A DNA stretch of 64,000 nucleotides from Candidatus Omnitrophota bacterium (GCA_043797125.1 JAZDPX010000038.1:4071-68070), one strand, 5' to 3'; positions 1,287 to 64,000 are shown, counted from the stretch's first letter. The notes: generated by a model not told the origin, from the sequence alone. Numbers and translations are program-made.

Positions 1287-2321
1287 CTATTTTGAAACAG
1301 TTTGATTTTTTGCCGAAATCACATTCGTTAATAGGTTTTCGATTGATTTTCCTATTATGACAGAACTTTTCTTTGTATACCCGCCGGAAAGAACCATTAA
1401 TATAGGGGTTCTTTTTTCTAAAGCGCTTCTGAATACTATTTCATCGCGCCTAATTATTCCATCCGCTGTTATATCCATGCGCCCTAACGGATCGCTTTTG
1501 AAAATATCGGTGCCGGCGTTATATATTATAAGGTCAGGGGCAGTCTTTTTGATTGCCTCGGGAATTTCTCTCTGTATTAACGCCAGATATTCTTTATCCG
1601 CTGTCTGCGAGGGAAGCGGGAACTGAAAATCTATGTATTTTTTTGCGTCAAAATCATTAGGGTATATCTCGCCGTTAAAAACATCGAAAATATTAACCCT
1701 GGGGTCATCCGCAAAAATCGACTCTACGCCGTTTCCCTGATGAGCGTCAAGGTCAATAATCAATATAGACATATCCGGCCTTTGCTTAAATAATTTATAT
1801 ACAGCTATAGGAATATCCGCAAAGAAACAAAACCCGCTCCCGGAATCGGCTTTCGCGTGGTGATAACCTCCGGATAAGTTTATCGCCCATCCGTGTTTTA
1901 GCGCTAATTGAGACCCCAGTATTGTTCCGCCAACCGCATACTTCATGGGTTTTAGGAGCCGTTCTTGTAAAAGAAAGTTCGGTAATGACGCGAGAATTTG
2001 TAATTCAGCAATCCTTGCGACATTTGCGGAGTTTTTTAATGAATCTAAATATTCCTGCGTGTGAACAGATAAAAGACCTTGCTCCGAAACAATCTCGGGA
2101 TTATAAAAATCACTCTTATTTAGCTTGGCTTCGTTTATCAAATATCGATATGCCTTCCCGTATTTTTCGCTGTCAAAAGGATGCAATTTTTCTAACCCGA
2201 ACAGCGTAATGTTATACTTGTCTGTATAAATAATATTTATTTTATAGGATGTTTCCACTGCATTTAATCCATCTATGGGAAAAGCAAGCATGATACACGC
2301 GATGATTGCGGCCTTTTTCAT
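1287..2321 (-). CDS. Secreted histone-deacetylase-family (arginase/deacetylase fold) hydrolase.
   Basis: 344 aa with an N-terminal signal peptide (MKKAAIIACIMLAFPIDGLNA). HDAC-family motifs are present: HHAKADSGSGFCFF, IIDLDAHQGNGVE and LSGGYT. Its start overlaps the stop of the upstream A2M gene in an ATGA-type overlap. Confidence 0.8.
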   Translation of the reverse strand: MKKAAIIACIMLAFPIDGLNAVETSYKINIIYTDKYNITLFGLEKLHPFDSEKYGKAYRYLINEAKLNKSDFYNPEIVSEQGLLSVHTQEYLDSLKNSANVARIAELQILASLPNFLLQERLLKPMKYAVGGTILGSQLALKHGWAINLSGGYHHAKADSGSGFCFFADIPIAVYKLFKQRPDMSILIIDLDAHQGNGVESIFADDPRVNIFDVFNGEIYPNDFDAKKYIDFQFPLPSQTADKEYLALIQREIPEAIKKTAPDLIIYNAGTDIFKSDPLGRMDITADGIIRRDEIVFRSALEKRTPILMVLSGGYTKKSSVIIGKSIENLLTNVISAKNQTVSK

Positions 2322-13303: not shown

Positions 13304-16300
13304 TTACGCACTTGCTGCAAAGGCGCCAATGGCGTGAATATCGAAATTTGGTTGGCTTTCGTAAGCTTTGAGGTTGGATTGGCCTACAGGATCTTCAACA
13401 TAGACATTTGTCAATTTAATACTTTTAAATTCTGGCTTTTTATTTAAACGTAAAGCTAAGTCTACGCCTTTTTTACCTCTGTAAACAGCTATAGGTAGAT
13501 TTAACTCTAATATGTCGTTTATTATATCTTCTGCAAAATCTGGAAACTTTTCTTTACGTACATGAGCTTTAGCAATGGCATTTCCCAAATTATCCGCTGT
13601 CTTTTTATGTTCTCCTGCTGGGTAAAGATATCTTAGTAAAACATAATATAGGCCTCTTGAATCCTCATTATTAACAACCTCTTCATCGATAATCTCTCTT
13701 TTTTCATCATAGCTAAGTTTATCAAATACAGCTTTAGGGTAGTCAAATATTGGTGATAGGATTAGATTGATGTTTCCGTATATGTCGACCTGATAATAAT
13801 AGCCCTGACTAAAGGCGCGCCGGCGATCAACTGTTTCCCAAATCTTTTTCTTTGCCGCAGAATCACAAACCTCAAAGCCTCTTGCAGACAATACGTTAAT
13901 ATCAGGCTCAGGAAACGTTGAATTTTTATTCCATCCCTCATACCCATCCTGTATGTACTGTAATATTCCCTGCTTTTTAAGTAAGGATATAAGCTTTATT
14001 TCTATATTGTCTGCAAGTTCAGGCCAGCTTATGCCGTTTTTCTTAACAAACACAGGGGGTTTTTCAAATCTGAGGTGAATTTCATGCTTGTGCTCATAAA
14101 GATTTTTTATCATATTAAAGTAGCGTCTTACATAATGCGCTGTGAGCCTTTCTTCGTTGTAATTGTATTTTTTACACAACCTGATAAAATCGCCGTCAAA
14201 AGGATGAACAGAAATCTCAATATCATAAAGCAGACCGGAGTCATTTATGTGTTTCAAATTTCTATACATAAGGTCCTGATATTTTTCAATGGCACCATGC
14301 GTTATAAGGCCGTAAGCTATTTTTGAAAAAGGATTGTAATCCAGCATTTTTTTAATATCATGGTATAGTGCACCGCATACATCCTCATAAAGAAGTGGTT
14401 CAAAGTCGTAACTGTTGTGATGTAAAAAACCATTTTTGGCAAGCATTACGACCAGGGGATACGGCATACATCTTTTTGCGCGTATTATTCCTACTAACTT
14501 TATTACGGGGCAAAAAATGCAGCCATTGCCACAGTATCCAGCAGGTCTAACATTTAAATATGAACAGTATCTTGTAAAGCCTAGTGTGTCTATCTCTTTA
14601 AAATGCTCCTGCGGAAACTGCTCGAGTATTTCTTTTGCTGTCATTTTCGGTACATTGCGGAAATACGATATTGTTTTATGCAGCTCCTTGCATAACTCTT
14701 GTGGCATAGGCCCTTTTATGCGCTCTGCCTGCTTTAAAAGCTCCTTGCCGTTTTTGTTTAATATACCGAAATCCTCATAATAGGAATAAACCTTTTTAAA
14801 GTAATCCAGGTTTGCTGCGACATATTCAGCCTCGATAACAATTTTCCCTTTACTTGCCATCGGCCGCAAGGCGGCGGAATCGATGGCTTCGAGGCTTTGA
14901 ATATCTTTAAATAGAGTTGGCTCTAAGCCATTTTGTTCACATAATATTGATAAAATTTTATGTGCCTCCTCATTGCTGTTAGTGTCAAATGAAACAATAT
15001 TTTTCGCGGGATCCCAAATGCATGGGAATACCATTGCTTCACGGTTTTCGCCGCTTCCAACACGTCTCAGTTTTACCAATACTACATATAGATACTCCTT
15101 AGAAGCAGTTTTGATGCGATTATGAAAGAAAAATCCATGCGAGCCAGCCTCATCCAATAATACTATTCTGTCTTTCCTTCCATGCTTTTGTTTTAATACT
15201 TTGAAAAGTTTTGTAAAATAATGCGGTAAAAAATGATAATATGAATCATGGTATAGTTTTTTTCCATGGGATGCGTTAAACCATCCATTATCCTCATGTA
15301 AAACCCTGTATGGCAGTTTATAAAAAGCTGCGTTGAAGCTTTGATCGCGCTGCTTTGCTTTAACTTTTCTTTCAAATTGTTTTGAAAGTGAATCGCCTCT
15401 TATTACAACAATATTCTGTGTCAAATTCGTTAAATTAAGATTACGGTATTTATTACCATAAACAGTACTATCTCTGCAATCAGGGTCTATCGCAAGTCGA
15501 AGCTCACTTTTACCTACGCCGCCTTCGCCATCAACCAAAATTAAAATCGGCATATCTGGATTAATGTCTCTTTGCTTTTTCACAATTGCCTGCAATTGAC
15601 CTAATACTATGTCAACAGGCTTAAAACCTAGTTTTTCATCTATTATCGATTGGGTTTTATTATAATTACCCTGCTTCACAGTTTTTATGCCTAAGCTTTT
15701 AAGTAAGAGCTTAAAATCAAAAGGCTGATATAGAATTATATCAGAGCCGTGCTGTCTCAACCCTGCGGAATGCTCCGACTTATAGCAAAGGCCTACGCAA
15801 AATGCGCCGCCGGTTTTCATGGCGCCTATGCCGTTTCTGGTAGGGCCGTCATCTATAGCCACGACTGAATTATCCGGATAACCTCTTACGATTTTACTCA
15901 CTTCTTTGGTTTTGTTTTCTACGTTTCCGCGTATATTATCCTTTGGGATATATTTAGTTATTCCTAGTTCTTCTGCAAGGTTTAGTTCTGTCAAATTGCG
16001 GCTCCAGCTGACTATATGCATATCTACGCCTGCGTCTTTTGCTGATTGCAAAGCATCAAATATCCCTGGCACTATACAAAGGGTGGGGTCTGCTTTCCAT
16101 TCTTTTAAATGACTCTTTATGTATTTTTCTGCTTGCACAAAGTTAATCCCTGTGTAAAATCTAGCATCATCTATGCATAATGGCAAATTATGCGTTTTTA
16201 GGCTTTCAATAAATGCACTGATGCAGCCAGACAGTTTTCCTGGATTTTCTTTTAGCGTATCGAGTTTTGAGCCAATTGTATCCCAGAATAAGCTATTATA

Positions 16301-16684
16301 TTTTTTAAAATTATCTTTTCTAAAAGACTCTATATCAACCTTTTGCGGTTCCAGCCCATCAAGCACAATTCGAAATCTGTCTATATTTGACATCTCATTT
16401 TTGGTTTTATCAAAAAAATCCTTAGCTTTTTTAACATCGCCAAACTGCATACTTGTTATTATGGCGGTCTGCAATATCCATTTGATGGAATCTATGCCTG
16501 TAAATATGACGTCATCCCAGTCAAGAATAAGAGCTTTAACGCCGTTTTTCTTAAGCAGCTCTAAATTTTTGTGGTTTATTATTTTTATTAAACCTACGCT
16601 TTTACTCGCCATCGGCCTAAGAGCAAACCCCTGCTGCGGGGCAACTAATATGATCGCTATTATTATCGCAAGTATTTTTTTCAT
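13304..16684 (-). CDS. Signal-peptide-bearing multidomain protein: HAD-like phosphatase domain + P-loop NTPase/kinase-like domain + radical-SAM domain (1126 aa).
   Basis: The N-terminus is MKKILAIIIAIILVAPQQGFALRPMASK. HAD motif I is LILDWDDVIF and a DD motif is VVAIDDGP. The Walker A is ILILVDGEGGVGKSE and the Walker B is IVLLDEAG. ALRPMASK recurs internally near aa 600. The radical-SAM motif is YCGNGCIFCPV (CX3CX2C with an aromatic residue before the third Cys). Confidence 0.8.
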   Translation of the reverse strand: MKKILAIIIAIILVAPQQGFALRPMASKSVGLIKIINHKNLELLKKNGVKALILDWDDVIFTGIDSIKWILQTAIITSMQFGDVKKAKDFFDKTKNEMSNIDRFRIVLDGLEPQKVDIESFRKDNFKKYNSLFWDTIGSKLDTLKENPGKLSGCISAFIESLKTHNLPLCIDDARFYTGINFVQAEKYIKSHLKEWKADPTLCIVPGIFDALQSAKDAGVDMHIVSWSRNLTELNLAEELGITKYIPKDNIRGNVENKTKEVSKIVRGYPDNSVVAIDDGPTRNGIGAMKTGGAFCVGLCYKSEHSAGLRQHGSDIILYQPFDFKLLLKSLGIKTVKQGNYNKTQSIIDEKLGFKPVDIVLGQLQAIVKKQRDINPDMPILILVDGEGGVGKSELRLAIDPDCRDSTVYGNKYRNLNLTNLTQNIVVIRGDSLSKQFERKVKAKQRDQSFNAAFYKLPYRVLHEDNGWFNASHGKKLYHDSYYHFLPHYFTKLFKVLKQKHGRKDRIVLLDEAGSHGFFFHNRIKTASKEYLYVVLVKLRRVGSGENREAMVFPCIWDPAKNIVSFDTNSNEEAHKILSILCEQNGLEPTLFKDIQSLEAIDSAALRPMASKGKIVIEAEYVAANLDYFKKVYSYYEDFGILNKNGKELLKQAERIKGPMPQELCKELHKTISYFRNVPKMTAKEILEQFPQEHFKEIDTLGFTRYCSYLNVRPAGYCGNGCIFCPVIKLVGIIRAKRCMPYPLVVMLAKNGFLHHNSYDFEPLLYEDVCGALYHDIKKMLDYNPFSKIAYGLITHGAIEKYQDLMYRNLKHINDSGLLYDIEISVHPFDGDFIRLCKKYNYNEERLTAHYVRRYFNMIKNLYEHKHEIHLRFEKPPVFVKKNGISWPELADNIEIKLISLLKKQGILQYIQDGYEGWNKNSTFPEPDINVLSARGFEVCDSAAKKKIWETVDRRRAFSQGYYYQVDIYGNINLILSPIFDYPKAVFDKLSYDEKREIIDEEVVNNEDSRGLYYVLLRYLYPAGEHKKTADNLGNAIAKAHVRKEKFPDFAEDIINDILELNLPIAVYRGKKGVDLALRLNKKPEFKSIKLTNVYVEDPVGQSNLKAYESQPNFDIHAIGAFAASA

Positions 16685-16685
16685 A

Positions 16686-18305
16686 TCATTCTCGGATTTC
16701 TAACAAGGTTAGATTAACCTGGTTAGATGCATGTTTTTTTGCTGCTGCAGGACGTAGAGCGCAGGAGTCTGTGGATTGCGTTACTTTTAATTTATAATTT
16801 GTGAATACAAAACCTACTCCAAAAAAGAAAGTAGATAAATTTTTACCTGAAAGTTCTTTTGGATTAAAAAGCAAAAGCTCCTCCTGCTGTGTTAACAAGC
16901 CATTATTTTTAAGCCAGGATATAACTTCAAAACATTGTTTTTCACGCGTCATTTTATACGCCTCTACTTCACCCATATGTACACAAATTTGCTTAACATG
17001 GGCTATTAGTAGTTTTTCGCAAATTTGAGCCGCTACCAATCTGGCAAGATTTAAATTTCCCGTGTTAGCTTCTACAACATTTGCAATGCTAATTTCTACT
17101 GCTTCTTTTGGCAGTGTATTGGAAACAAACTCCTTTAAAGTGTTCTGATCTGCGCCTTCTAAATATTTATCAATTACTAACAGCATGGATTGTGGTTTAC
17201 CTCCGTAAATTATGTGCTTGCCCGGAATATTATATCGCCTGATAAGCTCTGAATGTGCTGAGCCCATCAATGAAACTATAATTGCTTCATTGTCCTTTGA
17301 TAAAATATCCTCTGCCTGTTTTATAAACACGTCGTTAAAAGACTGAATATGTTTTAAATAAGCCTCATACCTATCAAAGCAGCCTTTCAAATAGCCGTTT
17401 AAATCTCCCGAAAAAAAAGAGTCGCCAGCATCGAGGAATATTTTATCATGTAATAATTTTTTTTGCATTATATCCACATTCAGGTTGCTGGGAAACATCT
17501 TATGTATTTTATATCTATTTTTTGCTAGAAAAGTATGATAGGCAAAAGCGGCGTCAAAAAATTGACCTGGATTTAAGTTTCTGACATAGCCGGTTTTTTT
17601 GATATTATCTAAATATTCTTGAGCTGACAAAGCATAATCTTGTAGTTGTTGAGCTAAAACATCAGAATGCTTAGACAGCTTATAATCAGGCGGGAACATC
17701 TCAACCATGACATAAATATGTTTTTTTTCTTTAAACCCGGCATCCATAGCATATTGCATATGCGGTATTGCAGCATCAATATTTTCTTTTGTTGCATGTG
17801 TGGTAAAAAATAACTTTGCAGCATCCTTTAACAGAGGTCTCGTCAACCAATCATAGAGTGCATAGGCGCCTGTCGATGCTATTGCTATTCCTCCAATAGT
17901 ATATATTAATTTTTTTGTATTATTTCTATGTAGTTTCGTTTTTATAAGTTTCTCATATTCAATTTTAAAATGTTTATCAAGATCGGTAAGATCTATAGCG
18001 CCTTTTTTCTTTTTTAGGACAGATATTTCTATTTCAGTTGAATCTGACATTCGAAATGTGATTAGGATTGTGTTTTTCTTACTTTTCGGGTTGGTTATCG
18101 TGATATGCTTAATATCTGAATAAAGTTGGCTTGATATAAAGTGTTTACTTAGGGCTTGTCCTACGTCATTTGGAATGTTTCGCAGCGCCTGAATCTTGGG
18201 CACATTTTTTTCTATTAACTCACTTGAGGATATGGGCCTCAACGCATATGCCTGTTGTGTCATAGTAAGCATAAAACAAATTAATATTGATAATATTTTT
18301 TGCAT
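16686..18305 (-). CDS. Secreted hypothetical protein of the QQxYALRP family (539 aa).
   Basis: The N-terminus is MQKILSILICFMLTMTQQAYALRPISS. There is no recognisable catalytic motif apart from a weak TraB/Tiki-like GSAH. The C-terminus DSCALRPAAAKKHASNQ... runs into the conserved leader of the next gene. Its stop overlaps the next start as TGATATG. Confidence 0.7.
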   Translation of the reverse strand: MQKILSILICFMLTMTQQAYALRPISSSELIEKNVPKIQALRNIPNDVGQALSKHFISSQLYSDIKHITITNPKSKKNTILITFRMSDSTEIEISVLKKKKGAIDLTDLDKHFKIEYEKLIKTKLHRNNTKKLIYTIGGIAIASTGAYALYDWLTRPLLKDAAKLFFTTHATKENIDAAIPHMQYAMDAGFKEKKHIYVMVEMFPPDYKLSKHSDVLAQQLQDYALSAQEYLDNIKKTGYVRNLNPGQFFDAAFAYHTFLAKNRYKIHKMFPSNLNVDIMQKKLLHDKIFLDAGDSFFSGDLNGYLKGCFDRYEAYLKHIQSFNDVFIKQAEDILSKDNEAIIVSLMGSAHSELIRRYNIPGKHIIYGGKPQSMLLVIDKYLEGADQNTLKEFVSNTLPKEAVEISIANVVEANTGNLNLARLVAAQICEKLLIAHVKQICVHMGEVEAYKMTREKQCFEVISWLKNNGLLTQQEELLLFNPKELSGKNLSTFFFGVGFVFTNYKLKVTQSTDSCALRPAAAKKHASNQVNLTLLEIRE

Positions 18306-19639: not shown

Positions 19640-20065
19640 TTAGATCTCGGTCCACTTAACGGTGAGAAAGCCATATTTTAGACAGGTCATTTTTACTTCT
19701 TTTGCCACACGCTCAAGTTCTTGGTCTGTGAGGTTACCGGCCTTTTCAGTATCGTATGTAATTATTCTTAAGTTAACTGATTCTGTTTCAGGCAGGTACA
19801 TAGACATATTTTTATAATATTCCTGCATAAGCGAGGAATTTACAAGGCATACATCAGGCCCAAACAAGAGGCCTTTCCTGTGTATCTGTTCTGCTGTATC
19901 AGCGCGTTCAATTTGATAGTATTCACCATAAACAGAAAGCGAGGTAAAATGCGTTTTTAGAAAATGATAAATAACCTCATTCGGCTCCGCGATAAGGAGT
20001 TTTGCCCTTATCAGCAGGATAGTTCCCTTTATGGTTTGCCTGTTTCTCCAGTCTTTTGCATCCAT
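19640..20065 (-). CDS. Stand-alone paralog of the response-regulator C-terminal domain (unknown function).
   Basis: 141 aa. Its C-terminus ELERVAKEVKMTCLKYGFLTVKWTEI aligns with the C-terminus of the adjacent RR (ELERVAKLVHQTCMKLKLIDLKWTDV). Confidence 0.55.
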   Translation of the reverse strand: MDAKDWRNRQTIKGTILLIRAKLLIAEPNEVIYHFLKTHFTSLSVYGEYYQIERADTAEQIHRKGLLFGPDVCLVNSSLMQEYYKNMSMYLPETESVNLRIITYDTEKAGNLTDQELERVAKEVKMTCLKYGFLTVKWTEI

Positions 20066-20093: not shown

Positions 20094-20909
20094 TTATATA
20101 ATTTCATACCTTACGTCTGTCCACTTAAGGTCGATAAGCTTGAGTTTCATGCATGTCTGGTGAACCAGCTTAGCGACCCTTTCAAGTTCTATTTTTGTAA
20201 TATCTCCTTCCTTGTCTGTTTGATAAATTATCAGTTCAGGCTTAGGATTGCTTTTCTCAAGGATCGCGGAAATTACACTCTTGTTGCCGTTTATCTTGAA
20301 GGAGGAGTTAATTAAATAAATATCGGGCTTAAATACTATTGCCTTCTCAAAAAGCCGTTCTTCTGTTTGGGCGTGGGCTGTTTGGTAATCTTCGCTGTTT
20401 GCGCTTAGCGATATAAAATGCGACTTCAAAAGCTCGTAGCTCTCGGTATTAAGCTCTACAAAAAGCAGCTTCGCCTTAATGGTAACTACCCGCGCCCTTG
20501 TCTTCTGTGTCGGCTTTAAGGAATTGCCTATGTCTTCTTCTTTAGTAAGTATGGCGCTCAAGCGGCTATAAAGTTTCTTCATTTCAATTGGTTTTATTAA
20601 AATATCTTCTAACGTATTATCCTCCGCGACCTTCCATGCTGTGTCAGGAAAACCTGTGAGCATTACAAATTTTGTTTTTGGATATTTTTCCTTTGCAATC
20701 TGGGCAAGCCTTCTGCCGCTTATGCCTGGCATATTAAAATCCAGCAAAACCAAATCTGCGCCGTTTCTATCCAAGCTTTTCAACGCTTCCTCGCCGCTTG
20801 ATGCAGTAGTAACATCAAAGCCCTTTTTAACAAGGAAAGCCTTCAATAGATATACTATATCGGGCTCGTCATCCACAACAAGGATTTTTGATTTTTGCGT
20901 GTCTTGCAT
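20094..20909 (-). CDS. Response regulator (REC domain) with an uncharacterised C-terminal output domain.
   Basis: ILVVDDEPDIV...DLVLLDFNMPGISG...KFVMLTGF is a CheY-like receiver. The C-terminal approx. 130 aa form an unknown domain that is paralogous to ORF 19640..20065. Confidence 0.75.
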   Translation of the reverse strand: MQDTQKSKILVVDDEPDIVYLLKAFLVKKGFDVTTASSGEEALKSLDRNGADLVLLDFNMPGISGRRLAQIAKEKYPKTKFVMLTGFPDTAWKVAEDNTLEDILIKPIEMKKLYSRLSAILTKEEDIGNSLKPTQKTRARVVTIKAKLLFVELNTESYELLKSHFISLSANSEDYQTAHAQTEERLFEKAIVFKPDIYLINSSFKINGNKSVISAILEKSNPKPELIIYQTDKEGDITKIELERVAKLVHQTCMKLKLIDLKWTDVRYEII

Positions 20910-21708: not shown

Positions 21709-21876
21709 TTACTTATTAAAAATTTTAAGCCATATGAATACTGCCGGGGGGCAATATAAAACAAGCAAAGCCGACATAGCCAAAAGTGGCGTCTGTTTAG
21801 TAATCAGAAATCCATATACGCCCAGCAATAAAGTGGCGCTCAATGTAAAAGCGGAATACCAGGCTAAAATTTTCAT
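21709..21876 (-). CDS. Unannotated 55-aa two-TM micro-protein, translationally coupled to the pilin gene.
   Basis: Minus strand reads aggaggaaTGATGaaaatt. The ATG overlaps the pilin TGA stop, and the RBS AGGAGGA lies inside the pilin 3' end. It encodes MKILAWYSAFTLSATLLLGVYGFLITKQTPLLAMSALLVLYCPPAVFIWLKIFNK*. It falls below the ORF-track size cut-off. Confidence 0.4.
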   Translation of the reverse strand: MKILAWYSAFTLSATLLLGVYGFLITKQTPLLAMSALLVLYCPPAVFIWLKIFNK

Positions 21877-22301
21877 CATTCCTCCTGTTCTTCTTCTGTT
21901 ATTATGCCTGTCTGGTCAATAATAAAAGTTTTTGTCCCTGTAATATTTTGCATTTGCGGTTCAGCTATGCAAGTAAAAGCAAAATTACCGTTAGTTGGCT
22001 CATATGTAAAGGCATAACCGTCTTTTGTGCCTGCTGCCAATTCTTCGCTTATATACGGCGGGGTTTCAGATCCAAGCTGTTCCAGCGAATCAGGGTAAAT
22101 GTTGTGTTCGCCAAAATAACTTGAGCAAGCGCTGCAGATAGCCTGCAAAGATTTATGCGCGGCAGATTCATTGGCATTATGTTTAGCTCTCAGCATCATA
22201 GGTATGGCAATTGCTGCCAGAATGCTGACAATGGCAACAACCACAACAATTTCAACAAGCGTAAAACCAATATAGCGGCGCTTTAGGCTTTTAAATTTCA
22301 T
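21876..22301 (-). CDS. Type IV pilin / T2SS pseudopilin (prepilin N-terminal methylation domain).
   Basis: MKFKSLKRRYIGFTLVEIVVVVAIVSILAAIAIP is a classic prepilin leader, with GFTLVE plus a hydrophobic helix. Confidence 0.85.
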   Translation of the reverse strand: MKFKSLKRRYIGFTLVEIVVVVAIVSILAAIAIPMMLRAKHNANESAAHKSLQAICSACSSYFGEHNIYPDSLEQLGSETPPYISEELAAGTKDGYAFTYEPTNGNFAFTCIAEPQMQNITGTKTFIIDQTGIITEEEQEE

Positions 22302-24193: not shown

Positions 24194-24225
24194 ACGTAGC
24201 GCAGGCTTAAGCCTGCGCTACGTCC
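24194..24225. repeat. REP-like perfect palindrome (gacgtagcgcaggcttaagcctgcgctacgtc), acting as a bidirectional terminator between convergent genes.
   Basis: The identical 30-32 bp palindrome also occurs at 27851..27880 and 36585..36614. A compensatory variant occurs at 56353..56384. Confidence 0.7.
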
Positions 24226-24234
24226 GGAGACTTT

Positions 24235-27850: not shown

Positions 27851-27880
27851 ACGTAGCGCAGGCTTAAGCCTGCGCTACGT
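27851..27880. repeat. REP-like palindrome copy (acgtagcgcaggcttaagcctgcgctacgt).
   Basis: Identical to the copies at 24194 and 36585. Confidence 0.7.
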
Positions 27881-27906
27881 CCGAGTTGTTACCTATTACC
27901 TGACTT

Positions 27907-36584: not shown

Positions 36585-36614
36585 ACGTAGCGCAGGCTTA
36601 AGCCTGCGCTACGT
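36585..36614. repeat. REP-like palindrome copy (acgtagcgcaggcttaagcctgcgctacgt).
   Basis: Identical to the copies at 24194 and 27851. It lies downstream of the M16 peptidase gene. Confidence 0.7.
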
Positions 36615-36648
36615 CCGAGTCGAGATACTTACAATGACTGAACTGTTA

Positions 36649-61166: not shown

Positions 61167-62435
61167 TTAAGCACATTCAGATATAGCTGCATCTGTCTGG
61201 TTTAAGTCAAATTTTTCGTTTGCTTTTGTTCCATCGCTTATCCATGACATGGAATCTCGTATGATTTCATCAATGTCTAGATTTTCAATAAAAGAAATTA
61301 ATTTACCTCTTTTTTCGGCTTTTATCAAGCGATTTATAGTAACGTCGGGGTTGGCATAAGACATCCAATTAATAGAATCTGGATGAGATGCCAATAAAAC
61401 ATCTTTGATTCGGATCTCTTCATCCTGTTCAAGTCTTTCAATTGCCTTTTTCTGTATCTGATCGATTAACTTAATGGTCTCAGGCAAATCAGATAAAAAA
61501 TCTGTACTACGATTTATTATTGAGACATTGTCCCAGCAAAGGAAAAGTTCTTTAAACATTTTCATATATTCTCCAACCACCAGTATCAACCCTTCCTTAT
61601 TCATTTCAAGTATAGCTTCTTCAATTTCTGGCATATAAAGGTGAAAAGTAACCAATAGAAGAATATCTTTGTTTTTCGTCCACGATGAATTTAGTTGCCT
61701 TAACTGTCTGATTACCTCTCTGTGCTGCATAGCATTTTTATCAAACGGGGAATGTCCTGCTGTTCTTATAGTCCGTTTATAGGGTACAGAACGGTATTTA
61801 TACTCAAAATTAAGAACATTTACTATGTTAGCGGCGCTTATTTCATCATGATAATGCAAAACATCTTCTGCGCCGTTGTAATAATAAAGATCTATTGTTT
61901 CTTTGGATAACATAACTTGCGTATAAATTGAATAAGGCAAAGATTTAACCGGCCTTTTACCTCCAACATTACAAAACATACAATCGTTATCGCATCCTCT
62001 TAACAAATATATACTAAAAATACAATTTCCAGAAGAATCCAGCGCTAAAAATTCTGGATTTTTTTTAACATATTCCTCAGGCGATATAAATACGCAATTG
62101 CTGCCATCATTTACGCCGCCGTATTCCTTTGGTAAAACTAATTTTTCAACAGCTTGCGCATAGGTTAAGCCGATAAACTCTGATATGTCAAACCCGAGAT
62201 CATCAAATGTAACTTTGTTATGTTCTATGTTTCTGCTGATTTTTTTGCCATATTTGCTTAAAACGCAGATCTTGTCATAAGCGTCGAGCATTTTATGCAA
62301 ATCCTGCGCTGTTTTAATAACAGGCCTCTGCAAGTTCGCAAATGAAACAGGCCTTAGGGCATAGCTTTGTTGTGCGTTTTGCATTAAAAATGCGAGCGTA
62401 ATAATAAATATTATTAGTTTTGAATGATTTATCAT
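61167..62435 (-). CDS. Signal-peptide-bearing radical-SAM protein, paralog of the C-terminal half of the 1126-aa protein.
   Basis: The start MINHSKLIIFIITLAFLMQNAQQSYALRPVSF is at 62435; the track extends to 62504. LLRGCDNDCMFCNVGG is CX3CX2C with an aromatic residue before the third Cys. It shares the ...HxPFD region with the large protein. Confidence 0.7.
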   Translation of the reverse strand: MINHSKLIIFIITLAFLMQNAQQSYALRPVSFANLQRPVIKTAQDLHKMLDAYDKICVLSKYGKKISRNIEHNKVTFDDLGFDISEFIGLTYAQAVEKLVLPKEYGGVNDGSNCVFISPEEYVKKNPEFLALDSSGNCIFSIYLLRGCDNDCMFCNVGGKRPVKSLPYSIYTQVMLSKETIDLYYYNGAEDVLHYHDEISAANIVNVLNFEYKYRSVPYKRTIRTAGHSPFDKNAMQHREVIRQLRQLNSSWTKNKDILLLVTFHLYMPEIEEAILEMNKEGLILVVGEYMKMFKELFLCWDNVSIINRSTDFLSDLPETIKLIDQIQKKAIERLEQDEEIRIKDVLLASHPDSINWMSYANPDVTINRLIKAEKRGKLISFIENLDIDEIIRDSMSWISDGTKANEKFDLNQTDAAISECA

Positions 62436-62500
62436 AATGACATTTCTAACCAGGTTAGATGTTTTTATGCGCATGCGTCTAGCGATAACATAGCGCGCAA
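62436..62500 (-). promoter_or_regulatory. Conserved leader element with hairpin UCUAA-CCUGG-UUAGA upstream of the radical-SAM paralog; homologous element at 16686..16760.
   Basis: ...gctagacgcatgcgcataaaaacatctaacctggttagaaatgtcattATG aligns with ...gctctacgtcctgcagcagcaaaaaaacatgcatctaaccaggttaatctaaccttgttagaaatccgagaatgatATG upstream of the 1126-aa gene. Confidence 0.45.
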
Positions 62501-64000
62501 GCAAGGCGCATCAATCTTTTTTATTCTTTCGCCGGTGGCTATGTTAGGGTTTACTGGCAAAGCAGTGATAGCGGTTATTCCAGGTGCCAATTTTCCATTT
62601 ATGTAAACCTGCCTCCAATCATTATCTTCTTGCGGATCTTCCTTAAAACTCACCCTTAGGTCTGCATCTGGGAAACAGAGGTCTGTGTGCTGGGAAGCAA
62701 AGTAGTAATTGCCCTGTTTTAAGGCTGTATCTGTTACCGTGCCTCTTTTTGCCTGTTGGTCTCCTATGCCTATGTGCGGGCCTTGTTTTTCATCATGTGC
62801 TATAATATTAAGCAGTAGGCCGCTGCCCATTATGCCAAGTCCCACCTCAGATATAACCTCAAATTCTGGATTCTTTTTTAAGTACTCTCTGAATGCCGTA
62901 TTTTCTATTGAATTAATATCTATTAAGCCAACTGTAACTTCCACAGGCTTTTCAATATTTTCGTGCTTTACCATGCGAGTTCCCACCTTAATATGTAATA
63001 AAGTATCTTCTTCTGCGGTGTAATTTCCTCTGTGGCTTTGGATTTCTGTGCCTTTTTTTATCCAGATTTCTCCTTTGGCAGAAGATGGCGCTGTGTAAAC
63101 TTCACCGCCAATGTTACCCCACTTAGCTTTACTTTGCCTAATGTCTCCGAGACTTTGGACAAATCTTCTTTCTTCGGGGTTTATATTAATACGCAATGTT
63201 GCTGACTTTTCCCCTGAGCTATCATATGTTGTTAACTCAAATACCCTGGCGCCTTCAATATGTTTCATTAATTTTGCGGAAGTGTCTTTTAGTTCATCCA
63301 AACTGCGGCTTAGTAAACCCTCTATAGCATCCCTTTCAATCCAGGGGTTTTGTCCCGGCCCTGCGTTGGGAATTGCTGGATGAAGAACATGCGCTCTATC
63401 TTTTTCTGCAAACTCTTTTACTGCAATAATCCTTAACGCTTTATGTCCAACAAGATTAATTATATTAAACTCTTCGGGGGGCCTTGTATCAACGCCTAAT
63501 TCTTTTGCTTTTTCATTAATTAGCTTAAGTGCGTCTTCCTTGGATTTATTAGAAATGTTGACCAAAATGCTGTTCATTTTATTATCTGAGGCTTTCTGAG
63601 TTATGGCTCTAGCAAGAGCCATTTTATTCAGGCTGTCGCATAGGACTAAAACCGAGTGGCCTTTTTTCGCGCCTACTGCCATAAGAAGTTTATCAGCCAT
63701 TTCGCTGTTAGCCCTTTGTTGCGCGATGGGCGGGTTTTTCATCAATTCCTCGTTGTCAACGCAGAGCTCGCCCTCGTCCATTACGGTAATAAAGGTGCCG
63801 TCTTCCCTGTAAAGCTCGATACTAGGTTTGTTAAAAATCCAATCTATGTGGTTGTAGGTGCATTTATTATCAAAATTATTACCAAAGGCAAAATGGCAAG
63901 TGCCTCTTATCTTTTCATCCACTACAATAATTCCCATCTGCTGTGCTTTTTCATTCAAGCCAATGGCGAATTCTCCTATATGATAAGTATTTTTTACATA
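62465..64000 (-). CDS. Tandem-domain M29-family (aminopeptidase T/S-like) aminopeptidase. The 5' end runs off the window.
   Basis: The second domain has GGEVYTAPSSAKGEI, HIGIGD and ASQHTDLCFPDADLRV, which match the M29 motifs (TAP, HIA-G, SxxHxD). The first 60 aa in the window (HFAFGNN...NHIDWIF) match the C-terminal motifs of another M29 domain. The frame stays open to position 64000; the track start at 63958 is a TTG. Confidence 0.6.
   Translation of the reverse strand, partial: YVKNTYHIGEFAIGLNEKAQQMGIIVVDEKIRGTCHFAFGNNFDNKCTYNHIDWIFNKPSIELYREDGTFITVMDEGELCVDNEELMKNPPIAQQRANSEMADKLLMAVGAKKGHSVLVLCDSLNKMALARAITQKASDNKMNSILVNISNKSKEDALKLINEKAKELGVDTRPPEEFNIINLVGHKALRIIAVKEFAEKDRAHVLHPAIPNAGPGQNPWIERDAIEGLLSRSLDELKDTSAKLMKHIEGARVFELTTYDSSGEKSATLRININPEERRFVQSLGDIRQSKAKWGNIGGEVYTAPSSAKGEIWIKKGTEIQSHRGNYTAEEDTLLHIKVGTRMVKHENIEKPVEVTVGLIDINSIENTAFREYLKKNPEFEVISEVGLGIMGSGLLLNIIAHDEKQGPHIGIGDQQAKRGTVTDTALKQGNYYFASQHTDLCFPDADLRVSFKEDPQEDNDWRQVYINGKLAPGITAITALPVNPNIATGERIKKIDAPCLRAMLSLDACA

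Follow-up and report, generated by a model that had tools for sequence, protein, structure and literature searches.

The window analysed here, a stretch of 64,000 nucleotides (nt) from a 138-kb contig of a Candidatus Omnitrophota metagenome-assembled genome (MAG), encodes three leader-bearing proteins in which a short motif, Ala-Leu-Arg-Pro (ALRP), follows the leader and recurs within or near the end of two of them. Sequence comparison supports the view that ALRP marks domain junctions, both here and in relatives from other genomes, as an earlier note on this DNA had suggested. Since the motif stands after leaders as well as at the joints of unrelated modules, it is a candidate cutting or docking site in the multi-enzyme and giant proteins of this phylum, which are still poorly understood. 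The explanation that we tentatively favour, though we would not yet call it probable, is that ALRP may be the version used in this lineage of a "punctuation" motif at the enzyme-module boundaries of rare leader-bearing modular proteins, where a site-specific protease would cut.

The three open reading frames (ORFs) are present on the minus strand at 13304..16684 (1126 amino acids, aa), 16686..18305 (539 aa) and 61167..62435 (422 aa), with leaders and motif copies as previously described; the NCBI start of the third lies 13 codons further upstream, giving 435 aa (61167..62474, minus strand). The stop codon of the 539-aa gene is 1 nt ahead of the start of the 1126-aa gene. A slash denotes the boundary directly before Leu in the following lines and throughout.

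13304..16684, minus strand: 1126-aa protein, NCBI hypothetical protein V2A72_06955
16622..16684, minus strand: leader of the 1126-aa protein, MKKILAIIIAIILVAPQQGFA, with a positive n-region, a 12-residue hydrophobic core and G-F-A at -3/-1
16601..16627, minus strand: N-terminal motif copy FALRPMASK of the 1126-aa protein
15665..16597, minus strand: HAD-like phosphatase module (about aa 30-340), motif I DWDDV at 16508..16522
15005..15637, minus strand: P-loop NTPase-like module (about aa 350-560), Walker A GEGGVGKS at 15506..15529, then Walker-B-like RIVLLDEAGS
14849..14884, minus strand: internal junction I-D-S-A-A/L-R-P-M-A-S-K (aa 601-612), in a low-confidence linker
13370..14842, minus strand: CX3CX2C module (about aa 615-1105), predicted divergent radical-SAM-like fold, triad CGNGCIFC at 14510..14533
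13307..13321, minus strand: C-terminal end FAASA of the 1126-aa protein, a small-small end motif
16686..18305, minus strand: 539-aa protein, leader followed by YALRP, further copy (CALRP) 24 aa ahead of the stop
18222..18248, minus strand: motif copy YALRPISSS after the leader MQKILSILICFMLTMTQQA of the 539-aa protein
16737..16763, minus strand: C-terminal motif copy (TDS)CALRPAAAK of the 539-aa protein
61167..62474, minus strand: 435-aa protein, with leader, YALRPVSFA, distant CX3CX2C module and C-terminal ...ISECA
62337..62363, minus strand: motif copy YALRPVSFA of the 435-aa protein
61971..61994, minus strand: Cys triad CDNDCMFC (aa 161-168 of the 435-aa form)
62465..63958, minus strand: 497-aa ORF directly upstream of the 435-aa gene, overlapping its start and ending ...SLDACA

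Leaders and Motif Copies in the Window

Exactly five ALRP copies in genuine reading frames emerged from a six-frame scan of the window. Three of them (FALRPMASK, YALRPISSS and YALRPVSFA) follow an N-terminal hydrophobic segment. The fourth, AALRPMASK, lies inside the 1126-aa protein (aa 604-612), and the fifth, CALRPAAAK, is located 24 aa ahead of the 539-aa stop; both had been announced, near aa 600 and at the C-terminus, respectively, and were found in frame. LRP occurs five times in the 2087 aa of the three proteins vs. five times in the 29,578 aa of 100 background ORFs taken from the window and related loci. The motif is absent from four other leader-bearing proteins noted in the window.

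The codons of the five ALRP copies differ at all four positions. The N-terminal and internal LRPMASK copies of the 1126-aa gene, said before to be identical in 21 of 24 nt, turned out to share 19 of 24, with five synonymous and no non-synonymous changes. This codon variation together with the synonymous-only differences indicates that the peptide is conserved and not a nucleotide element; selection on the motif, as judged from these codons, acts at the protein level. The window also contains three identical intergenic elements of 33 nt, ACGTAGCGCAGGCTTAAGCCTGCGCTACGTCCG (plus strand, ~24194-24226, 27851-27883 and 36585-36617). Their first 30 nt form a perfect palindrome, so that they resemble a hairpin repeat of the REP-like (repetitive extragenic palindromic) or terminator-like kind. 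One frame reads ...RRLKPALRP, which accounts for the ALRP matches in non-coding frames.

All three leaders begin with a positively charged n-region, continue through ~12 hydrophobic core residues and some polar ones, and close with small residues at -3/-1: MKK + ILAIIIAIILVA + PQQGFA/L in the 1126-aa protein, MQK + ILSILICFMLTM + TQQAYA/L in the 539-aa protein, and ...HSK + LIIFIITLAFLM + QNAQQSYA/L in the 435-aa protein. The -3/-1 residues right before LRP are G-F-A, A-Y-A, and S-Y-A, respectively. Hydropathy analysis reveals the leader as the sole strongly hydrophobic segment in each protein. These leaders resemble Sec signal peptides cleaved by signal peptidase I, for which a positively charged n-region, 7-15 core residues and small amino acids at -3/-1 are typical, and by its residues [GAS]-[FY]-A ahead of LRP is a canonical -3/-1 signal-peptidase site. 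The contention that the motif is not a generic AXA cleavage site therefore does not apply to its first half, which is an ordinary site of the AXA type. Neither a lipobox (Cys at +1 after L-x-x) nor a type IV prepilin site (G/F-T-L-I-E) nor a Tat twin arginine was found in the three leaders. A true prepilin-type leader (...GFTLVEIVV) occurs elsewhere in the window, at 21876..22301.

Conservation of the Motif in Other Genomes

Word-indexed homolog searches with all three proteins returned the query only, or nothing. An exhaustive HMMER scan of 1.84 billion cluster representatives yielded 26 proteins, and every named-organism member of the family is a Candidatus Omnitrophota. Among 25 independent homologs, each <50% identical to the others, [LM]RP is present within the first 70 aa in 7, vs. 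0 of 100 background ORFs (Fisher 6e-6). Since the motif is kept in homologs elsewhere, it is not a local duplication, and the conservation that had been proposed as a check was thus observed.

Examples include P0007 (...DTAYA/LRPNATG) and P0010 (...GQSYA/LRPISTAK). A 665-aa leader protein with a weak Radical_SAM match, from the single-cell Omnitrophota genome AM-311-C11, starts ...KFYA/LRPVASS and carries ...AQDV/LRPAISK 27 aa ahead of its stop; the gene of P0003 (...SNT/LRPIATR) comes directly after it, reproducing the two-gene layout of the window. P0009/L005, which has a PHP domain and a CX3CX2C module, contains LRP four times, including AASV/LRPRAQRE 16 aa before the CX3CX2C module and GGSV/LRPRAA at the very end. 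In the MAG GCA_016206865.1, the P-loop protein P0011 has ...VGF/LRPRAAGE after its leader, and the neighbouring gene (L011, >2128 aa) has four LRP copies in the context S-[SG]-[VI]-LRP-[RL]-A, one of them 60 aa ahead of a Metallophos domain. P0005 shows ALKP at the position aligned to the internal ALRP of the 1126-aa protein.

In other lineages the motif lies 8-45 residues past the predicted signal-peptidase site. It also occurs in leaderless proteins, e.g., P0025 (...VVT/MRPAATKS), between modules without a preceding hydrophobic segment, and at C-termini. The spacing in relatives and the leaderless copies indicate that the motif is distinct from the signal-peptidase site that it abuts here. 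The idea of a sorting signal akin to lipobox or prepilin leaders does not agree with this distribution.

The C-Terminal End and the Composite Junction

The earlier note missed a second conserved element, the C-terminal end motif (...[ST]-A-A), as well as the analogous motifs of larger relatives described below. C-terminal ends in the family read [IL]-x-[ST/H]-A-A or close variants. The window ends are ...AFAASA, ...AISECA and ...SLDACA (genes at 13304..16684 and 61167..63958), and those of relatives are ...NITSAA, ...RIDSAA, ...GIHTAA, ...SVLHAA, ...LDQAA, ...LRTAA, ...AIGSAA, ...IQGAV, ...IARSA and ...SMTAV. An A[AV] end is present in 10 of 25 homologs vs. 0 of 91 background ORFs (4e-8). The ends ...RIDSAA and ...NITSAA, each directly before the stop, belong to P0010 and P0007, respectively. 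The gene upstream of P0010 encodes a 1077-aa methyltransferase/Inositol_P protein that terminates in ...EEIDSAA.

The internal junction of the 1126-aa protein reads EAIDSAA/LRPMASK. Compared with the family ends, it appears as a stand-alone C-terminal end joined, without spacer, to a stand-alone mature N-terminus. In a similar way, TDSCA/LRPAAAK of the 539-aa protein joins an end of the ...SECA/...DACA type to LRP. The linker at the internal junction has low confidence in the AlphaFold 2 (AF2) model (predicted local distance difference test, pLDDT, <50 at model residues 1-16) and is probably disordered. By its end motif alone, the 497-aa ORF is a possible member of the motif class; no family or PDB match was found for it in Pfam, NCBIfam and PDB sequences. 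Stretches of it such as GEVYTAP and HxD may point to M29 aminopeptidases, and its first 45 aa possibly resemble the tail of a preceding copy.

Modules and the Radical-SAM-Like Family

Three modules are fused in the 1126-aa protein. HMMER detected separate relatives for each of them, and in other genomes these modules occur as separate leader-bearing proteins. The order in the 1126-aa protein is leader, LRP, HAD-like module, P-loop module, IDSAA/LRP junction, CX3CX2C module, and C-terminal ...AFAASA. Pfam and NCBIfam gave nothing significant for any of the three window proteins. The HAD-like module contains DWDDV and has Pfam HAD_2 (E 0.026) and Hydrolase (E 0.052) matches, both under cut-off; it is matched by the relatives P0025-27, of which P0025 has Pfam Hydrolase and HAD_2 matches. 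The P-loop module, with GEGGVGKS and RIVLLDEAGS, has eight aligned relatives, where GK[ST] is present in most and missing in one. It matches no Pfam or PDB sequence family, so the "kinase" label is unproven. The signature motifs of the proposed HAD phosphatase, kinase-like P-loop, and radical SAM (S-adenosylmethionine) parts are all present, but the HAD match stays below cut-off and no kinase family emerged.

The CX3CX2C module is found singly, in tandem (three copies in P0003, two in P0004 and in P0005), and within proteins of 2.4-5.8 thousand aa (kaa). Its N-terminal part is long and helical, and a leader normally stands in front of the module. Both triads reported for the window are present and appear radical-SAM-like by motif and fold. 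Across 17 aligned module copies, the triad C718, C722, C725 (aa 718-725 in the 1126-aa protein) is invariant and an aromatic residue usually precedes the third Cys. The same alignment reveals other conserved blocks (MPYPLxIMLAK, YEPLYYEDxxGALYxDV and ITHG), and [FY]EPL[LY]YED loosely resembles a GGE-like SAM motif. The radical SAM profile PF04055 gives E 0.09 with the 422-aa protein (13.4 bits vs. a cut-off of 29.5, 20 profile positions matched) and no match with the 1126-aa protein, and a profile made from the CX3CX2C alignment hit nothing significant among PDB sequences. The module shows a partial TIM-barrel fold like that of solved radical-SAM enzymes, its best structural matches, which are moderate, being viperin, MoaA, SuiB, BlsE, SkfB, and BtrN. 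The designation radical-SAM-like is due to the cluster motif and this moderate fold match, not to sequence profiles. Structure modelling supports it at the fold level, and [4Fe-4S] binding and reductive SAM cleavage would be expected of a true member. The comparison with radical-SAM profiles called for earlier therefore gave a divided answer: the Pfam threshold is missed, but the fold matches and the triad does not vary.

The 422/435-aa protein matches the profile of the CX3CX2C family at 23 bits (i-E 3.6e-9), and phmmer finds P0004-P0010 with it; on this sequence evidence it is a distant member of the module family. Searches of Pfam, NCBIfam, PADLOC and PDB sequences assign the 422-aa protein to no family. 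The 539-aa protein has no detectable relative in homolog searches, including phmmer, and no Pfam, NCBIfam or PADLOC match; its single-sequence AF2 model has a pLDDT of 39. A TIKI/TraB-like protease is a conceivable identity for it. The description of the three proteins as a paralogous family applies to the leader and motif, and to the CX3CX2C domain that the 1126-aa and 422-aa proteins additionally have in common. Overall paralogy is lacking, as all three share just the ~27-aa leader plus the motif and the 539-aa protein stands without relatives.

A leader-type N-terminus was recognised by a simple hydropathy rule in 16 of 28 family sequences, including most CX3CX2C proteins. This suggests that a leader before the radical-SAM-like module is characteristic of the family and does not stem from faulty annotation. 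Enzymes of the Fe-S radical-SAM, kinase, and phosphatase kinds work in the cytoplasm. The earlier note rightly regarded a leader on a radical-SAM domain as anomalous, yet in this family it is the rule. Phage-type integrase genes (L010 129..1199; L012 5579..6196) lie beside the stand-alone CX3CX2C proteins P0007 and P0008, which hints that some family members travel on mobile elements.

Punctuating Motifs of Larger Relatives and Giant Proteins

Six relatives of the window modules are proteins of 2.4-6.2 kaa. Larger relatives carry repeated, genome-specific motifs of their own. P0019 (6230 aa) has GARLA 13 times vs. 0.08 expected, two copies bracketing its P-loop module. P0018 (2911 aa) has R[SA]EVR nine times, shared by two adjacent long ORFs, one of which has NUDIX and RNase III domains. 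K-x-SSAG appears at each module boundary of P0003 and P0010, roughly every 430-500 aa, with SSAG counts of four and three in relatives, and the 4243-aa ORF of L003 carries A-[AT]-S-T-S. The punctuating motifs fall between Pfam domains and have no transmembrane (TM)-like segments ahead of them. With few exceptions, the stretches that they separate are not homologous, and the codons used for GARLA and RSEVR show synonymous variation. The domains of these relatives comprise inositol monophosphatase, guanylate kinase, glycosyltransferase, M28/M20, methyltransferases, helicase, and NUDIX. At L014 (8380..28736, GCA_964460795.1), long ORFs are arranged in tandem: 537 aa, 2911 aa, 2552 aa (NUDIX, RNase III), and 2131 aa. 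The last three share R[SA]EVR, an assembly gap lies just ahead of P0018, and the fourth ORF (recorded as 2131 aa) extends past the end of the locus with 773 aa visible.

Omnitrophota are reported to encode long or giant multi-enzyme proteins with signal peptides or TM segments, whose domains include methyltransferase, HAD, radical SAM, kinase, and phosphatase (10.1101/2023.11.21.568195; 10.64898/2026.06.07.730766). Cleavage of such proteins has been proposed in this literature. The former paper, which asks whether they are divided into functional units, names C39 or S8 domains as the cutters and declares the cleavage points unknown (10.1101/2023.11.21.568195), and the latter (10.64898/2026.06.07.730766) reads many of the long proteins as membrane-anchored with their bulk in the cytoplasm. 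A junction or end motif is mentioned in neither. The domain content of the relatives listed above agrees with these descriptions. The window proteins belong to the same phylum and have the same domain content but are short (0.4-1.1 kaa).

It is conceivable, although on balance rather doubtful, that the Omnitrophota giants are true polyproteins with a genome-specific motif (A/LRP; GARLA, R[SA]EVR, SSAG) and a dedicated co-evolving protease that would release cytoplasm-type enzymes, an exported radical-SAM family among them, for action outside the producer, presumably in a host or prey cell. If so, the motif would be the first map of cleavage points in the giant proteins of this phylum, which encodes some of the longest known proteins. 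The window shows a small-scale version of the architecture, with a sequence rule: modules open with LRP-x-[AS]-[ST] and close with [IL]-x-[ST]-A-A, and in fused genes the two ends meet without a spacer. Such a rule would allow giant ORFs to be split into units for structure prediction. The predicted new N- and C-termini at defined residues should show in existing metaproteomes, and the responsible protease could be sought via its co-evolution with the motif. The family also defines a radical-SAM-like group that sequence profiles miss and that habitually stands behind an export leader. This placement conflicts with the presumed site of Fe-S radical enzymes and would mean action in another cell or an unusual topology.

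Proposed Processing and Alternative Explanations

Processing is favoured because a short motif of fixed, genome-specific sequence is conserved as peptide, because it lies in probably disordered linkers between unrelated enzyme modules, and because its halves correspond to stand-alone ends. A site-specific protease would recognise the composite site and cut between the small residue and Leu (A/L, as we infer). Fused and unfused genes would then yield identical mature units, starting LRP... and ending ...SAA, and the motif would co-evolve with the protease, as the sites of viral polyproteins do. At the N-terminal copy, signal peptidase I could make the same cut. Cleavage would also account for the stop codons exactly at the junction (...IDSAA, then stop), the only place where gene fission leaves the product unchanged, and for the tolerance of short tails after the last LRP. 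The modules released would be cytoplasm-type enzymes, including the very divergent radical-SAM-like domain. If truly Sec-exported, they probably act outside the producer, e.g., in a host or prey cell, which fits the predicted host-dependent lifestyle of Omnitrophota.

Several observations weigh against this explanation. The evidence for cleavage is all comparative and comes from 64 kb of the source genome, ~14 related loci, and 26 homologs. Pfam reveals no protease domain in the window proteins or in the L001, L005, and L011 relatives. The search for a co-occurring peptidase suggested in the earlier note gave no consistent neighbour at the loci examined: rhomboid, M48, MA_2, and M16 genes were each seen once, and the sole peptidase domain in P0013 is an exopeptidase (M28/M20). 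Leu is preceded by A in the window lineage and by V or I in others, some family members have no LRP (P0005, P0012, P0021), and the copy in P0004 precedes a hydrophobic segment instead of following it. The motifs of other lineages are not alignable with confidence, and S/A/G-rich stretches such as SSAG and ASTS could be plain flexible linkers. A few unrelated proteins (CorA, an ABC permease, L008) end in AA too.

The same conservation evidence fits equally an uncleaved short linear motif, i.e., a handle for docking or sorting on the flexible module ends, with ...SAA as a second handle, read by a transport, assembly, or chaperone factor, for instance in a second secretion step or in host targeting. 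The position of the motif 0-45 aa after the leader, as in PEXEL/RxLR, agrees with this, as does the failure to find a protease, and C-terminal copies such as ...LRPRAA directly before the stop would be poor cleavage sites that free few residues. A handle, however, does not need the spacer-free juxtaposition of end and start that a cut site predicts, and up to 13 copies per polypeptide would be unusual for a targeting signal; we consider this alternative unlikely. A topogenic role appears quite improbable. It assumes that Arg after 19-21 uncharged residues turns the leader into a membrane anchor and keeps the enzymes cytoplasmic. The uncharged run from Lys/Arg to the Arg of LRP is indeed 19-21 residues in P0001 (the 1126-aa protein), W539 (the 539-aa protein), P0002, and P0010, the flanking charges of these four are roughly balanced, and an anchor would remove the paradox of an exported radical-SAM enzyme, the module types being cytoplasmic; the 2026 preprint reads many of the long proteins in this way (10.64898/2026.06.07.730766). 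Yet the core is short (~12 residues), polar P/T-Q-Q and a good -3/-1 site come next, the 435-aa form has a strongly positive n-region, and the internal, C-terminal, and leaderless copies would be left unexplained.

That the motif is an evolutionary relic, the start of a shared leader cassette whose internal and C-terminal copies are functionless fossils of fusion or duplication, seems very improbable, although the segment before the internal copy (HKILSIL...) resembles the 539-aa leader (QKILSIL...), the 539-aa tail (...NQVNLTLLE) resembles the start of the next gene (...NHKNLELLK), and modules do exist as separate genes elsewhere. LRPMASK has remained unchanged, with its nucleotide changes all silent, while the putative old leader decayed. 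Furthermore, LRP or LKP stands at the same junction in P0001, P0009, and P0005 at 26-30% identity, and other proteins have 4-13 copies with non-homologous segments between them and no hydrophobic remnants. Hardly credible is an origin at the DNA level, from in-frame copies of the 30-nt palindrome translating to ...KPALRP. The intergenic copies do encode ALRP in a non-coding frame, and the C-terminal copy of the 539-aa gene can be aligned with this element (CCTGCG--CTACGTCC), its score being at the 99th percentile of random windows. This single resemblance needs a 2-nt gap plus a frame change, the other four copies score within the null distribution, all five differ in codons, and the motif is kept in distant genomes of different G+C. 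With one of five copies resembling the repeat, an origin from the REP-like palindrome was rejected. Hidden signal-peptide-like segments before the internal motifs were rejected as well, as no TM-like segments precede them.

Comparison with Known Systems

Polyprotein-like punctuation is known in principle, but no description of it was found for bacterial multi-enzyme proteins or for Omnitrophota. The feature belongs to none of the classes MARTX, viral polyproteins, and host-targeting motifs. In MARTX toxins, an internal cysteine protease domain (CPD) cuts between effector domains. The linkers between effector modules are processing sites, and the modules act in another cell after release (PMC6315884). 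The proteins considered here likewise join several unrelated enzyme modules in one large polypeptide through probably unstructured linkers. Unlike MARTX, no CPD (C80), RTX repeats, or other protease domain was found in the Omnitrophota proteins, the N-terminus carries a Sec-type leader where MARTX toxins have a type I secretion signal, the motif, which varies between genomes, is longer, and processing would be predicted only by comparison. With viral polyproteins they share a fixed short motif between non-homologous units that differs by lineage; in contrast to these, the organism is cellular, the enzymes are of metabolic type, and the units also exist as separate genes.

As in signal peptidase I sites, [GAS]-[FY]-A and also the S-A-A/L and S-C-A/L copies obey the -3/-1 rule. 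In ordinary signal peptides, the mature side is not conserved, and Arg at +2 is unusual for Sec substrates. By contrast, L-R-P-x-[AS]-[ST] is conserved on the mature side here, internal copies lack a hydrophobic segment, and V or I stands at -1 in other lineages. PEXEL of Plasmodium and RxLR of oomycetes are similar as short Arg/Leu motifs at a distance of several to several tens of residues from the signal peptide, on proteins presumed to act in another cell. These are host-targeting, eukaryotic, and exclusively N-terminal, PEXEL being itself a protease site, whereas the Omnitrophota motif recurs internally and at C-termini, and host delivery in its case is only conjectured. The CX3CX2C module resembles the radical SAM superfamily (PF04055) in its invariant triad and partial TIM-barrel match and departs from it in missing the profile threshold, in its own conserved blocks, and in the leader in front.

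Neighbouring Genes and Minor Observations

AbiEi/AbiEii and alpha-2-macroglobulin genes adjoin the locus, as noted before and now confirmed by Pfam; they are mere neighbours. No PADLOC defence-system model, including that of prokaryotic viperin, matches the window proteins, and Rfam has no matches in the window. At 1287..2321 (minus strand), a 344-aa enzyme of the histone-deacetylase family (PF00850, E 5e-59) begins like a signal peptide, MKKAAIIACIMLAFPIDGLNA; here, too, a leader precedes a cytoplasm-type enzyme, but LRP is absent. The 141-aa ORF at 19640..20065 (minus strand) resembles the C-terminal half of the adjacent 271-aa response regulator at 20094..20909 (minus strand) (...AKLL..E.N...Y..LK.HF.SLS...) and looks like a duplicated output domain.

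In the contig of P0008 (L012), a gene with a Pfam Histone match (PF00125, 3948..4570) is directly beside a gene for an HU-type DNA-binding protein, and the same contig bears, along with its phage-type integrase, a toxin-antitoxin pair of BrnT and a CopG antitoxin (BrnA-type). P0010 (L007) contains at aa 500-575 three tandem 34-aa repeats ending ...ETW[DQ]TLKPIRD, downstream of an RNHCP domain (PF12647).

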